Of a stretch of 32,000 nt of DNA, positions 9,001 to 18,000 are shown one piece after another. Position 1 is the stretch's first letter; every line of letters starts with the position of its first letter. The DNA comes from Mycoplasma mycoides subsp. capri. Lineage in GTDB: Bacteria > Bacillota_I > Bacilli_A > Mycoplasmatales > Mycoplasmataceae. The position numbers were made by a program. The stretch is from contig NZ_CP065581.1 in NCBI RefSeq assembly GCF_018389705.1, positions 570,001 to 602,000 on the forward strand, read 5' to 3'.

Positions 9001-12000
9001 CAAATTTTAAATTTTCTAATACTTTAGCATCATTTAAAAACTCGTTTTTATCTTTAAAACTATTAGATAAATATTTTCCAATTACAGTATTTTTTAAATA
9101 AGAATAATCTTTATCATTTTTTAAAAATTGATCATAAGAGTGATAAACAAACTTATTAAAATGTAAAGAAAGTTGTCATAATCAAATATTTTCTCAAATT
9201 CAATTAGTATCTTTACCATTGATTGTTGTAAAAAGTTCAATAAATTCTTTATTTTCAAATAATTCAGTTAATATAGTTTTATTATCAAAATTACTAGTTA
9301 GATTTTTTTTATTTAATATAAAGTTTAAATATGAAGTATTTTTATTATTAGAGCTTTGATTATAATAAGAATTTGAATTATTAACTAAATCTAATAAAGC
9401 AATAACTGATCTATCTGTTGTTGAATTATTTCTATCAATTCTATAAGTTCTGATTTCATTAGTACTACTATAATCAAATTTATTAACATTATTAACTATG
9501 TTATTATAAGTTTTATTAATTCTTGAAGTTAATGTTAAAGAAGTACTTAAAATAAATGACGCTAAAAAAGATAATAAAAGAATGATAATAAATTGGATTT
9601 TAAATTTAAAAACACCTTTTAGACCTTGTTTTAATAACAATAAAAAGCTAGTTATTCTTTTCATTATCTTTCTCCATAAAAGCAAATCATTTGTCTTTTT
9701 AATACTATCATTTTTTTATCTAATCTACACTTTTAAAGGGTTTTTTAAAATAAATCAATATAGGTGTATGTTAATATTTAATTGATAAAATTTAATATTT
9801 ACAAGGAGAATAGATGAAAAAAATATTAATAGGTTTAAGTACATTTTCTTTATTAGTTAGTTCATCTAGTATAGTTTCTTGTACAATAACTTACCAATTT
9901 AAAAATAACTATTTAGATCAATTAAAAATGATCTTAAACACTTCATCAATAGCTGCTCAATCAATTATTTTAAGTGATAAAAATACTACAAATATTAGTA
10001 CTGATTATTCATTAAAAACTTTTAGTCAAACTAAAATTAGTGATTTGTATAAAAATGAAGAAAAAAAATTAGCTAATAAATATGTAATTGATAAAAAAGC
10101 TACTTATGAATATCAATTTAAATCAATGTTTTTATCACTTGAAAATCAAAAATGAACTGAAACATTAAAAAAAATAACTACTATTGATAAAAATAATCAA
10201 ACTACTAATTTAGATTTAGCTTGAAATGATCAAAATACAAAAACAACTGATAATAATATTTTTAAAACTCTAAGTTTAGCTTCAGCTGGGTTTAATTTTT
10301 TATTTTCTGGTGATTTTACACCAAACCAACAAGGTGATTTAATTAATAATTTTTTATCTAATCAATTTGGTTTATTAGAATCAACTGTTTTTAAAGATAA
10401 TCAATTTACTAATTTAATAGATCAACTTAATAATATTGATAATAATCAATTTTATAATCTTACTAATAGTTTATTTACTCAACCAGAGTGACTTAATAAA
10501 AATAATAATGAATTTTTAAAACAAACATTAAAAGAAATTTTAGAATCTTCATCAAAAAAACTATGAGATCAAATACTACCAAAAGCTGAAAAACAAGATT
10601 TTAAAATAGATTGATCAAAAGTATTTAAACCTTTAATTGATTTATTAAAGGCTTTTAGTATTTATTATGAACAAATAGAACAAAGATCAGATAAAAATTT
10701 AACTTATCAAACTATGGATCCTTTACATTTATTTAGTAAAGAAAAAACAAATAGTGAGTTTTTATATGAAGTTTTAAATACTAATTTACAAACTATTTAT
10801 AAAAATAAAAGTGAAGATCAAATTAAACAAGAAATTAATTCAATTAATTTAAAAAAATTAATTAGCTTTTTAAAAAACACTTTAGTTTTTGATAATAATG
10901 ATAAACACGGTTATAAATTTCAAAAATTTGTTGTTATGTTATTGAGTAGTGCTAGTCAAAAAGAATCACAAAATGATATTACTAATAATTTTTTACTAAA
11001 ACCCTTTTATAATTGATATGAACAAAACCAAGAACTTGTTAAAAAAATTATTACAAATAAATTAGAAAAGATAGAAAGCATAAAACCTTATGCAAGTTTT
11101 GTTTCTAATATAACTCCTATTTTATTTAAAGTGATTAAAGCTTTTCATCAAGATTTAATTGAACAAGGTTTAAATAAAAAACTAAGTTCAGAATTAAGTA
11201 GTTATTTAAGTTTAGCAAAAACACTTTTACCAGCTCTTAAAGTAGATAAAAAAGTGATTGATTTTTTAGATTCAAAAAGTTTAAAGGACTTTTTAAATAA
11301 TCCGTTTTTAGCTTTATATAAACAGAATTTTTTAAAAGAAGTTTTTGAATTAATTAATCAATTATCAAATAAAGAAATTATTAATAATCAAATTATTGAT
11401 AATATTTCAAATGTTTATAATTTAACTACTTTAAAATTAGATAAACTACTTAACTACTTATTAGAATTAATTAAAAAACCATCACCAAGTAAAACTAGTT
11501 TAGATGAATTTCAATTTTTATATGGTTTAAAAGATCTATCAATCAGTCAAATTATTAACAATTTATCAACTTTTTATAATAAAGAAAACCTAAATTATAT
11601 TTTTAATTTAAATAATTTTAAAAACTTATCAGAAGCAATTTTTAATAAAAATATAACTATGAGTTTTAAATATAAAAATCAAGAACAAGAATTAAAAACT
11701 CAAAATAGTTTATCAACTATTTTAACAATATTAGGTTTAAATTCAAATTATACAAAAGATCTAAAAATTGAAATCAAAGATGATACAAATAAAATTTCTG
11801 AAAAAATAAAACAACTAATTGAGCAAAAACAATATGGATTAATTTCAGTTATTCTATTAGGATTTGATGCTGATAAAAAACAATTTTATAAAGATTCTAT
11901 TTTAGATAATATAGCTAATTTATTTGGTCATAATGATAAAGATATAAATAAAGAAGCTTCTAAAAATGCTATAAACATTTTAATAAAATCTTATTTAGAA

Positions 12001-15000: not shown

Positions 15001-18000
15001 ATTACTCACTAAGTAGTTTAGATAACAATTATTTAGAATATCAAGAAAAGGATTTTCAGCCGATTAATGTTGAAGAAGCAAAAATTAAAGAAATTCTTTT
15101 AAATGATAAATTACCTTTAAATTTTTATTCTCATCCTAAATACAAACCAGAAAAGCAAAATATTTTTATAAATCCTAATGAAAAAATTAAACTTAAATTA
15201 GTTGATAGCAAAAATAATACTGAAGTTAAAGATGATGTTAAATGATATCAACGATTAAGATATCCAGAAAATCAAATTTTAAAAGCTGGAGAAGATAAAA
15301 ATGATAAGTTAACATTATCAACTGATGGAACAGTTATTGGAAAAACACATACAAAAGAAAATGATCCAACAACTTTAATATGAGCTGGATATAAAGGTTA
15401 TTTATATCCTTTTTTTGTTGAAGTTTCTTCACAACACCACTACAATGGTGAATCAGATAAACAAAAAGCTAAAAAAGTTGCTCAAGAATTAGCTCAACAA
15501 TGAAAAGACTTGCCTACACTAGAAAAAATAACAAAAGCTTATGAGTGAATGACTAAAGAAGTAAAATATGATCCTGGGTATCAAACAAATAGTATTTATA
15601 AAGATCAAACTGCATATTCAGCACTTGTTGAAAAATGTACTGTATGTACTGGGTATGCTAAAGGATTTAAGATGATTATGGATGAGTTATCTATTCCTTG
15701 TATAGTTATGGAAGGTCAAAGCACACGTGATTTTTGAGCTGCAAGACATGCTTGAAATTTAATTGAAGTTGATGGTGAATGATATCATGTTGATGCAACT
15801 TCAGACAGAACCAATAATGAACAAACATTTAACTTTTTCTTTAATAGTAACGATGATTTTAATAAAAGTGATAGTTTTCAGCGCAATTTAGGAGTTTATG
15901 GTTCTAGATATAGAAATTATAAAAATAATAATTTTGTTCACTCAAAAGAAGATACATTAGCATTAATTGATAATCAAATTTCAGATAAAAAAGATCAAAC
16001 TTTATCTTTAGAATTAACTTCTGATAATTTTATAAATGTTAATAAAGCATTTGATGAAAGACAATTAGAAGTAGAAAAACATACTAAATTAGAAACCAAA
16101 TTACCTTTTAAAAGAATAAAATATACACTTAAAAATAAAAATACCACTGAAATCAAAACATTAGAAGCAAAAATTAAAAAAGAAGAAATAAAAAACAATC
16201 CTTTAGGTATGTATGCTTTAAAAGTAACATTAACTTTAGATACAAATATTCAAGATCTTAAACCAGGAAATTTTAATGTGAAAAATGCAATGGTTAAAGA
16301 AGTTAAAAAAGTTAAAGATGGTTATATATTATTCTTAGATAACTTTAGTAAATTTGGTAATGTAGAAGTCGAACTTCAATCAATTAAAAGACAAGGATTT
16401 AAGTTTAATTTAGATCAAACTAAATTTCAATTTGATGTTAAAAAACATGAAAAACCAAATGTTAATTTAAAAATAGACAAAAATAACAAAATTGCTCTTA
16501 TTGGTTCAAAAAAAGGAATGCAATATAGAAGTAATATGGATGGGTGAACAGATATAACAAAAGATGATTTTGTAATCAATAACCCTAAAGTAGGAAAACT
16601 ATCTATTAGGTGAAAAGATTATGATAATAAATTTGCTTCAGACATTCAACTATTTGACGTGCAAAGAGCTAATGATGTTGTTAATAAGGTTAAGCTAGTA
16701 GACAATATGCTTATTGGTCTTGATAACACTATAGAATATAAAAAAGAAGCAGATACTTCATGAACAAATGCTACAACTCAAAGATTAAATTTAACTAGTG
16801 GAACTTATTGAATTAGAACAAAAGCTTCTAATTCAACTTTAGCTTCAGACATTTCAAAAGTAGAAATAAAGTAAAAATAGTTAGTAATTGTCACTATTAC
16901 TAACTATTTTTTATTTTTCATTCTATTATATAATTCATAAACTTTAGATTCATACTGATTATTTTTGTGATTATAAAACTTTTTGTTTTTAATTTCATCT
17001 GGTAAATATTGTTGTTCTACTCAATCATTTTCATAATCGTGTGGGTATTTATAATCAATTCCTATACCAAGCTTAATAGCAGATTTATAATGATTATCTT
17101 TTAGATGTTTTGGTACATTATAAATGTTTCCATTCTTAACAAAGTCTAAAGCAGAATTTGTAGCTAAATAAGCTGAATTAGATTTTAAACTTAAACTCAT
17201 TTCAACAATTGCTAAACCTAGTGGTATAATTCCTTCTGGAAAACCAATTTGTCTAAAAGCATTACATGCTTGAACTACTCTACTTGGAATTGTTGGATTA
17301 GCTAAACCAATATCTTCATAACCAATTATTATCATTCTTCTCATTAAGCTTTCATAATCACCTGTTTCAATTAACCTACTAAAATAATATAAAGCAGCAT
17401 CAACATCACTACCTCTAATTGATTTTTGTAATGCTGATTTTAGATCATGAAAATCATCACTATCTTGAGCTGTTGGATTTTTTGAAACTGTTATAATAGT
17501 TTTAATTTTTTTTATATCTATAAATTCATCACTATAAAGTCTATGGATTAATTCTAAATAATTTAAAAAAGTTCTAACATCACCAACACTTAGTTGAGCT
17601 AAAAAATCTAAAGCTTCATCTGAGATATTAATTTTTAATTGATATTGATTAATAACTTTTTTAGCATAACTAATCAATTCATTTTTATTAACTGATTTTA
17701 ATTCTATTAATAAGCTTCTACTTCTTAAAGCGGGATTAATTACAAAAAATGGGTTTTCAGTAGTTGTTGAAAAAACAAAGATATTTCCTTTTTCCATATA
17801 TTCTAATAAAATATCTTGTTTATCTTTATTTAATCTATGTATTTCATCAATTATTAAAATAAATCTATCTTGTAATAAAGCTTTTTGAATAATACTAGTA
17901 AGTTTTTCTTTTTTATCATAACTTGCATTAAAAATTTCATAATCAATTTTTAGATCATTTGCTAAACTAATTGCAAAACTAGTTTTTCCAACTCCAGATG

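Follow-up and report, generated by a model that had tools for sequence, protein, structure and literature searches.

A probably composite envelope locus of Mycoplasma mycoides subsp. capri: a giant FtsX-type permease, its divergent MOLPALP lipoprotein and two inserted transglutaminase-fold lipoproteins

Introduction

ATP-binding cassette (ABC) systems of type VII, such as FtsEX-EnvC/PcsB/RipC, LolCDE-LolA, MacAB-TolC and YbbAP-TesA, have FtsX-type transmembrane (TM) domains with large outer domains placed between the first two helices of each half. FtsEX of Gram-positive bacteria activates papain-like cysteine peptidases. One publication states that all four type VII ABC systems of E. coli work through an extracytoplasmic partner (PMC12646458). 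Here we examine a locus of Mycoplasma mycoides subsp. capri at which a giant permease of the FtsX/MacB type is encoded divergently from three lipoproteins, designated LP1, LP2 and LP3. The locus lies within a window of 32,000 nucleotides (nt) that was analyzed as a whole (positions 570,001 to 602,000 of contig NZ_CP065581.1, RefSeq assembly GCF_018389705.1), and coordinates given without further label are those of this window. The analysis makes it probable that the locus is a composite of an old module, formed by the permease and the MOLPALP-family lipoprotein LP1, whose partnership we infer, and a younger, inserted pair of transglutaminase-fold lipoproteins, LP2 and LP3.

Counterparts of the permease and LP1 have been described in the minimal cell JCVI-syn3A as genes 0399 and 0398. 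In the syn3A gene table, 0398 is an 'Uncharacterized lipoprotein' of 2463 bp, 0398 and 0399 are both quasi-essential and the gap between them is 148 nt (PMC6609329). Antczak et al. recorded 0398 as TIGR04547 and modelled 0399 on MacB with a confidence of 100, with 8 helices by TMHMM (PMC6629657). Five different amino-acid changes arose in 0399 during laboratory evolution of syn3A, and the gene was altered in 8/10 independently evolved lines (PMC10448532). The possibility that the lipoprotein mutated in evolved syn3A was 0398 was considered and rejected, as that lipoprotein is 0481. A second described pair is MMSYN1_0033/0034. MMSYN1_0033 is a surface protein of 1052 residues, named 'STREFT protein', whose residues 558-1044 match TIGR04547 (E 1.5e-10); it is divergent from the FtsX-like permease 0034 with a gap of 146 nt, and near the two lies MMSYN1_0030, an essential ATPase of the LolD/FtsE/DevA class (cd03255, LolCDE/FtsE class) (PMC6629657).

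For LP2 and LP3, the described relatives are of two kinds. TglA of Streptococcus pyogenes (9crn) and a putative cysteine protease of Cytophaga (3isr) have the same catalytic core and the same motifs, VC(T/N)GYA, HAWN and Y.VD.T. The mycoplasma surface lipoproteins Vsp, Vpma and Vmm/0481 are likewise strain-variable, with conserved signal-peptide ends as possible recombination anchors. In a domain survey, 100% of the mycoplasma species from ruminants had a transglutaminase-like domain, as against 0% of those from pigs or humans (PMC5293770). Our literature search returned no functional paper on TglA or 9crn and no functional data on STREFT or on a transglutaminase in mycoides.

Results

The permease and LP1

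The permease gene occupies 4403-9664 on the minus strand. Its longest open reading frame (ORF) extends to a TTG at 9685; a GGAG sequence precedes the ATG at 9664, which is the likely start and gives a protein of 1753 amino acids as annotated in the orthologues. Pfam FtsX matched the protein in two stretches (E 4e-18) and there was a weak match to MacB_PCD. The hydropathy profile shows a 1+3 helix pattern twice, with about 8 TM helices in total and two very large extracellular regions at roughly residues 50-645 and 835-1620. The protein thus has the topology of the type VII ABC permeases MacB, FtsX and LolCE, namely an FtsX-type domain of four helices, the first and second of which are separated by a large outer domain. 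These two FtsX domains, together with the published MacB-based model of the orthologue (PMC6629657), agree with the first-pass annotation, an earlier reading of the window from its sequence, which had called the divergent permease MacB/FtsX-like. The permease is the orthologue of JCVISYN3A_0399 and is 97% identical to the GM12-type protein. A PDB sequence search with the permease gave no match.

LP1 is a protein of 819 amino acids (9814-12273, plus strand). It matched TIGR04547 over nearly its entire length (residues 1-815 of 819 against model positions 1-807 of 807) with an E value of 7e-170 and 567.1 bits, the cut-off being 65. This identifies it as a member of the MOLPALP family (TIGR04547 / PF27873), and a Pfam scan detected no other family and no hydrolase domain. 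The signal peptide, MKKILIGLSTFSLLVSSSSIVSC, leads to a lipobox cysteine at position 23, and S22 and C23 are invariant in 17 orthologues. LP1 is the orthologue of JCVISYN3A_0398, with 94.6% identity to the GM12-type protein. Alpha-helices make up most of its AlphaFold2 model, which has a small alpha+beta domain at the C-terminus and a predicted local distance difference test (pLDDT) score of 73.5 and is well ordered from about residue 170; residues 24-165 are conserved and were modelled poorly. The earlier description of the first lipoprotein as large, helical and of unknown function was therefore accurate. Against solved structures, LP1 had no sequence match in the PDB, and its best Foldseek match there (E 0.28) is not significant. 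We rejected the idea that LP1 is the solute-binding lipoprotein of an ABC importer on the basis of these two results and the lack of a matching Pfam family. LP1 was also compared with the outer domains of the permease as a possible homologue; the two are unrelated and this candidate was rejected as well.

An exhaustive profile search of 1.84 billion proteins recovered MOLPALP proteins in 24 representative clusters. All the named clusters are from Mollicutes, that is, Mesoplasma, Entomoplasma, Williamsoniiplasma, [Acholeplasma] multilocale and Mycoplasma of the mycoides group. The exhaustive search was needed to reach distant members, as a word-indexed database searched with the MOLPALP profile added nothing; a scan of genome contigs gave two loci.

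Pairing of the two genes across genomes

A divergent FtsX gene encoding at least 1750 amino acids lies immediately upstream of MOLPALP in 10/10 gene copies examined. These copies are from M. mycoides (the window; L009-11), M. capricolum subsp. capripneumoniae (Mccp), M. yeatsii (two copies), Mycoplasma sp. HU2014, M. putrefaciens, Mesoplasma syrphidae, Mesoplasma lactucae and Williamsoniiplasma somnilux (two copies). The gap between the divergent genes is 149 nt in the window (9665-9813) and 134-248 nt at all other pairs. In the window this intergenic region, which is near-identical in the GM12-type strain, ends in an AGGAG ribosome-binding site for LP1 and presumably holds the promoters of both genes.

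The genomic setting of the pair is of two types. In M. yeatsii, M. putrefaciens, Mesoplasma syrphidae and Mesoplasma lactucae, the order recO-era-ybeY-C39-DJ1-permease is followed by the divergent MOLPALP gene and then by convergent rarA-lon-tig, and collinearity over the 32-kb region extends from Mesoplasma to M. mycoides. W. somnilux (L016 4437-20997) instead carries two tandem copies of the divergent pair of giant FtsX gene and MOLPALP at another locus, next to rpsF-ssb-rpsR-rplI-dnaB. This neighbourhood matches that of M. mycoides 0033/0034 (STREFT/FtsX-like), which are next to rpsR-ssb-rpsF. The first-pass annotation had named conserved co-occurrence of the four genes in related genomes as a check of the proposed system. 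Such co-occurrence was seen for the permease and LP1, which are paired at every MOLPALP locus examined, and not for LP2 and LP3, which are absent from the locus in four species and stand alone elsewhere.

Family, fold and active site of LP2 and LP3

LP2 (759 amino acids; 12313-14592, plus strand) and LP3 (741 amino acids; 14649-16874, plus strand) are 46% identical to each other. Both belong to NF045980, the 'MAG6410 family transglutaminase-related lipoprotein', with 824.7 and 775.1 bits, respectively, against a cut-off of 450, and both contain the Pfam transglutaminase core PF01841 (E 1.9e-11 and 1.2e-9). Like LP1, each opens with a basic/hydrophobic signal peptide that runs up to the lipobox cysteine, the motifs in LP1, LP2 and LP3 being IVSC (Cys23), TISC (Cys23) and TISC (Cys26).

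The catalytic triad of LP2 is Cys350 (13360-13362), His384 (13462-13464) and Asp399 (13507-13509), and that of LP3 is Cys333 (15645-15647), His367 (15747-15749) and Asp382 (15792-15794). Across 19 family members, with identities as low as 37%, C350, H384 and D399 of LP2 and the nearby motifs VCTGYAK, HAWN and D.TSDR do not vary. This invariance argues that the putative enzymes LP2 and LP3 have retained catalysis.

The AlphaFold2 model of LP2 (mean pLDDT 78) starts with residues 1-115, which include a disordered, Asn/Ser-rich linker (24-115) after Cys23. There follow an N-terminal beta domain, the transglutaminase core with the triad, a small alpha/beta domain and three beta-sandwich domains of the Ig/FN3 type; by Foldseek, the C-terminal half is similar to Ig/FN3 chains. 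Among solved structures, TglA (9crn) comes closest, both by sequence (E 1.8e-14) and by Foldseek (E 2e-9), and the next structural matches are the Cytophaga protein (3isr) and the animal transglutaminases TG2, TG3 and FXIII. Unlike TglA, LP2 and LP3 are lipid-anchored and about twice as long, and they have an additional beta domain at the N-terminus and three Ig/FN3-like domains at the C-terminus. The Pfam core, the invariant triad and the TglA match are all in line with the first-pass view of the two proteins as putative enzymes of cysteine peptidase/transglutaminase fold.

Insertion of the transglutaminase genes and their probable loss from syn3A

Besides the mycoides cluster, the only organisms in which transglutaminase lipoproteins of this family were found are M. 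putrefaciens, M. yeatsii, M. cottewii, M. agalactiae and M. auris, and the genomes carry several paralogues each. The exact LP2 sequence had no match on record, and gene neighbourhoods were compared through homologues. The mycoides cluster has both enzyme genes at the present locus, and GM12-type M. mycoides capri is like the window in this regard. In the four species with the recO-to-tig gene order described above, a hairpin and rarA come directly after MOLPALP and there are no transglutaminase genes at that place. Since these relatives keep the gene order minus LP2 and LP3, with the terminator directly after MOLPALP, the sequence comparison indicates an insertion of about 4.6 kb that comprises the two transglutaminase genes only. 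The first-pass annotation had taken the entire 12.5-kb block (4403-16874) to be inserted between housekeeping genes; instead, the permease and MOLPALP are in an old syntenic position.

Elsewhere the family members stand alone, and no neighbour is conserved. In M. putrefaciens the site adjoins hprK/lgt; in M. yeatsii a tandem pair lies amid DUF285 lipoproteins; in M. agalactiae the neighbours are methylase, HNH and Fic genes; and a paralogue of 965 amino acids occupies yet another site in M. mycoides capri. Small ORFs upstream of transglutaminase lipoproteins in other species were considered as a conserved partner gene and rejected because they are mutually unrelated. As a separate observation, two such ORFs upstream of MAG6410 in M. 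agalactiae (L002 9120-9939), of 98 amino acids with a lipoprotein signal and of 141 amino acids without one, look like one gene split by a frameshift. With Fic, HNH, DNA methylases and SocA/Panacea around it, MAG6410 may lie in a region that is mobile or rich in defence genes.

The gene content of syn3A bears on the same question. Its gene table runs from lon (0394) directly to 0398 and then 0399, and the tags 0395-0397 are absent (PMC6609329, supplementary file 3). In the GM12-type parent there are exactly three genes between lon and MOLPALP, namely rarA and the two transglutaminase lipoprotein genes, and the sizes of 0398 and 0399 are those of the parental MOLPALP protein (820 amino acids) and permease (1753 amino acids). 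The missing tags 0395-0397 would accordingly be rarA and the two transglutaminase lipoprotein genes, which were then deleted. If so, the enzymes are dispensable in culture and the permease/MOLPALP pair is not, as 0398 and 0399 were kept. The syn3A locus would differ from the window in the absence of these three genes and resembles it in the divergent layout of the retained pair.

Transcription signals

A strong hairpin at 16873-16911, with a 16-bp stem, a 7-nt loop, an upstream A-run and a downstream T-run (ΔG -15 kcal/mol, z = -6.1 on both strands), forms an AT-rich, bidirectional intrinsic terminator. It overlaps the rarA stop codon and is common to LP3 and the convergent rarA. Equivalent hairpins are found directly 3' of MOLPALP in species without the transglutaminase genes (L007 ~12503-12532; L014 ~12307-12335; L015 ~12932-12965). 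Terminators in the window and in the relatives are AT-rich hairpins with few or no G-C pairs, which folding with a shuffle control recovers; a scan for a terminator consensus that requires G-C pairs returned zero terminators and missed the one at 16873-16911.

The two spacers between the lipoprotein genes contain ribosome-binding sites and no significant hairpin, with folding z = -0.85 for LP1-LP2 (12274-12312, 39 nt) and z = +0.68 for LP2-LP3 (14593-14648, 56 nt). The ribosome-binding site in the latter is AAGGAAAAG. The earlier claim that no terminator intervenes before the strong bidirectional hairpin thus holds. With all three genes on the same strand, short gaps and no internal terminator, the layout is that of a single operon, and co-transcription of LP1, LP2 and LP3 is possible as judged from these signals. 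The LP1-LP2 spacer is also the left junction of the insertion, and it is conserved in the GM12-type strain and in Mccp. It contains an AGGAG ribosome-binding site and a TATAAG (-10-like) box 14 nt upstream of the LP2 ATG, and this conserved box may leave room for a separate promoter.

Strain variation of LP2 and LP3

Between the window and the GM12-type strain, the flanking housekeeping proteins and the permease are 97-99.6% identical, LP1 94.6%, LP3 93.8% and LP2 62%. In the DNA, an identity of 97-99% gives way to one of 50-80% between about 12435, just after the LP2 signal peptide, and about 14660, in the LP2-LP3 spacer, and then returns to 93-99%; the region around this block is 93-100% identical. 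By its sharp edges, this block appears to be an allelic replacement of the LP2 ectodomain in which the signal peptide and the downstream paralogue were spared.

Within each genome, the two tandem copies share near-identical signal peptides and linker starts as well as the C-terminal motif STLASDISKVE. The homogenised ends are 12313-12440 and 14649-14780 at the 5' side and 14550-14592 and 16830-16874 at the 3' side in the window, and 7702-7880 and 10001-10180 in L005, from Mccp, where the two copies hardly differ over their first ~50 residues. The homogenised ends suggest gene conversion and could serve as recombination anchors, and the central ectodomain of LP2 looks like it has been exchanged by recombination anchored on them. 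Such recombination would also explain why the paralogue order in Mccp (L005 7702-9945) is reversed relative to M. mycoides. In Mccp, the LP3-like copy is a pseudogene, present as fragments of 484 and 120 amino acids. Neither (TA)n-type nor other phase-variation repeats were found upstream of LP2 and LP3, and the window gene map has no recombinase near the two genes. LP2 and LP3 differ in these two respects from Vsp, Vpma and Vmm/0481, and also in being large putative enzymes with an invariant active site and not repetitive coat proteins.

Other genes of the window

The window has a G+C content of about 21%. When ORFs were called with genetic code table 11, every long gene was broken up, and they were re-called with table 4, the Mollicute code, in which TGA encodes Trp; this produced a clean gene map. 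Table 4 is confirmed by the lipoprotein ORFs, because LP1, LP2 and LP3 each contain 10-11 in-frame TGA codons and 0-1 TGG codons and because the TGA-encoded Trp positions are invariant among homologues. The table 4 ORFs and the lipobox cysteines reproduce the first-pass gene model of three lipobox proteins of 819, 759 and 741 amino acids with gaps of 39 and 56 nt. The gene order is recO, era, ybeY, a C39-peptidase membrane protein, a DJ-1 protein, the permease on the minus strand and the three plus-strand lipoprotein genes, followed downstream by convergent rarA and then lon, tig, efp, fmt, a DUF2779 protein, mnmA and four small lipoproteins.

The C39 protein (629 amino acids; 1922-3811, minus strand) has about 4 TM helices and an intact-looking peptidase domain, with Cys in QYNDCS and His in LLHFVVV. 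In its C-terminal region, the place expected for an ABC ATPase domain, there is neither a Walker A motif nor a Pfam ABC match, and the protein's score against the NCBIfam model 'Mbov_0121 family peptidase domain-containing ABC transporter' (126 bits) is far below the cut-off of 500. The gene adjoins those of DJ-1 and the permease in all relatives, and its syn3A counterpart, 0401, is nonessential. The DUF2779 protein (714 amino acids; 23928-26072, minus strand) has a weak Cas4/DUF83 nuclease-like match and shares 11 nt with fmt at its start. The gene is conserved throughout the relatives, and syn3 retains it as MMSYN1_0389, where it is listed just as a PF11074 domain protein. The four small lipoproteins (28046-31156, minus strand) are paralogues of 286, 226, 241 and 193 amino acids with 27-67% identity, low-complexity linkers, helical Lys/Glu-rich bodies and no family match. 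The one of 193 amino acids looks truncated relative to its neighbour of 241 and has 213 nt of non-coding sequence downstream.

Discussion

We consider it probable that the locus is a composite of an old permease/MOLPALP module and a younger pair of transglutaminase-fold lipoproteins. By analogy with type VII ABC systems, LP1 would be the extracellular working partner of the permease. An ATPase encoded elsewhere, for which the LolD/FtsE-type 0030 of syn3A is a candidate, would drive conformational changes in the two huge outer domains, and the movements of these domains would act on or through the membrane-anchored LP1. With low confidence, we propose that the task of the module concerns a hydrophobic substrate at the membrane surface, either a lipid or a lipoprotein, and not classical drug efflux. 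The LP2/LP3 pair would have entered the locus in the mycoides-cluster ancestor, at a point between MOLPALP and the MOLPALP terminator. Each of the two proteins, held by its lipid anchor and long disordered linker, probably acts on ruminant host proteins and is probably under diversifying pressure.

Such a module would be a variant of the type VII scheme of an ABC permease plus partner, and the interest of the locus would rest on it. In contrast to the characterized systems, the half-permeases are fused into one protein of about 1750 amino acids with outer domains of about 600 and 790 amino acids. No ATPase gene is adjacent, the host has neither a cell wall nor an outer membrane, and LP1 has no relative of solved fold, while its partnership with the permease is proposed from gene order.

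Several points weigh against this reading. The evidence that LP1 and the permease are physical partners is one of gene neighbourhood, and adjacency at orthologous loci is weak evidence by itself because synteny in these small genomes spans the entire stretch from recO to mnmA. The case for a module therefore draws mostly on the duplication in W. somnilux and on the 0033/0034 paralogue. In syn3A, 0033 is essential whereas the adjacent 0034 is nonessential, which indicates that the paralogous surface protein is not strictly dependent on its adjacent permease and that the pairs need not be obligate. The 32-kb window contains no ABC ATPase gene, as a Walker A scan detected only era, rarA, lon and a kinase, and the assignment of MMSYN1_0030 to the permease is for this reason a guess. 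The LP1 model is moderately confident, the pLDDT of 73.5 being the best and those of the other four models 55-63. As for the enzymes, the literature search returned no biochemical data for any member of the MAG6410 family; a MAG6410 transposon mutant was in a pool screened in sheep and does not reappear in the main text of that paper. Lastly, the LP1-LP2 spacer of M. mycoides lacks a terminator, so that transcription may run on from LP1 into the enzyme genes, and a functional recruitment of the enzymes could have taken place in that lineage.

Some of these points would fit an explanation in which the permease and the three lipoproteins are four independent envelope genes, whose adjacency is the inherited gene order of small, stable genomes. 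Collinearity from Mesoplasma to M. mycoides would conserve neighbours regardless of interaction, and both the lack of an ATPase in the window and the different essentiality of 0033 and 0034 are consistent with independence. We nevertheless regard this explanation as unlikely. Against it are the tandem occurrence of the pair at a different locus in W. somnilux and the paralogous 0033/0034 pair; in addition, 0398 and 0399 share an essentiality class, and the divergent layout with a shared region of 130-250 nt is present at every copy.

The first-pass annotation had gone in the opposite direction and joined all four proteins into one extracytoplasmic machine, in which force from the FtsX-type permease would be passed through LP1 as an adaptor to switch on LP2 and LP3, as FtsEX does with PcsB, CwlO and RipC. 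The three lipoprotein genes are on one strand, 39 and 56 nt apart, and no terminator comes before 16873; this layout, the conservation of the MOLPALP-to-enzyme junction within the mycoides cluster and the intact triads could all be cited for it. In an FtsEX-type system, however, the hydrolase or its activator is a constant partner of FtsX, and here four species with the permease/MOLPALP pair lack the enzymes next to the permease, and enzyme genes lie by themselves at unrelated sites in M. putrefaciens, M. yeatsii, M. agalactiae and M. mycoides capri. Moreover, the enzyme locus tags are missing in syn3A while the permease and MOLPALP are quasi-essential, and one Mccp copy is a pseudogene. The enzymes would at most be a lineage-specific add-on, and the four-gene machine is very unlikely. 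The main caution to be drawn is that nothing here shows a new four-part machine.

It is also hard to believe that LP2 and LP3 are chiefly variable antigens or adhesins, acting as decoys or host binders with the transglutaminase core as a scaffold, because the Cys-His-Asp triad and its motifs are invariant in 19 members and no phase-variation repeats occur upstream, even if the 38% difference of the LP2 ectodomain between strains with near-identical flanks, the several paralogues per genome, the C-terminal Ig/FN3-like domains as in adhesion molecules, the long disordered tether and the dispensability in culture would suit such a role.

With the composite reading preferred, a more speculative extension can be formulated. 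The permease as a fused-dimer mechanotransmitter, MOLPALP, the 0033/0034 pair and the essential ATPase 0030, shared as a single motor, might together constitute a machine, specific to wall-less bacteria, by which lipids or lipoproteins enter or leave the outer leaflet. We offer this only tentatively and consider it doubtful on present evidence. All four proteins of the locus already carry family names in public annotation, and the syn3A literature lists the permease and LP1 as unknowns; the pairing itself is not new if the curators of MOLPALP had already noted the association with the permease.

The permease and LP1 are two of the quasi-essential genes of unknown function left in the minimal cell JCVI-syn3A, and the permease is the gene most repeatedly mutated when syn3A was evolved for faster growth. 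The view of the two as one module is a concrete and testable hypothesis, strengthened by the paralogous module and by the candidate shared ATPase. LP2 and LP3, as putative, recombining surface enzymes of the ruminant niche, are candidates for host-interaction or antigenic study in the mycoides cluster, to which the agents of contagious bovine and caprine pleuropneumonia belong. If the machine of wall-less bacteria proposed above is real, it would represent a new branch of the FtsEX/LolCDE/MacB class and would provide a function for up to five unknown syn3A genes.

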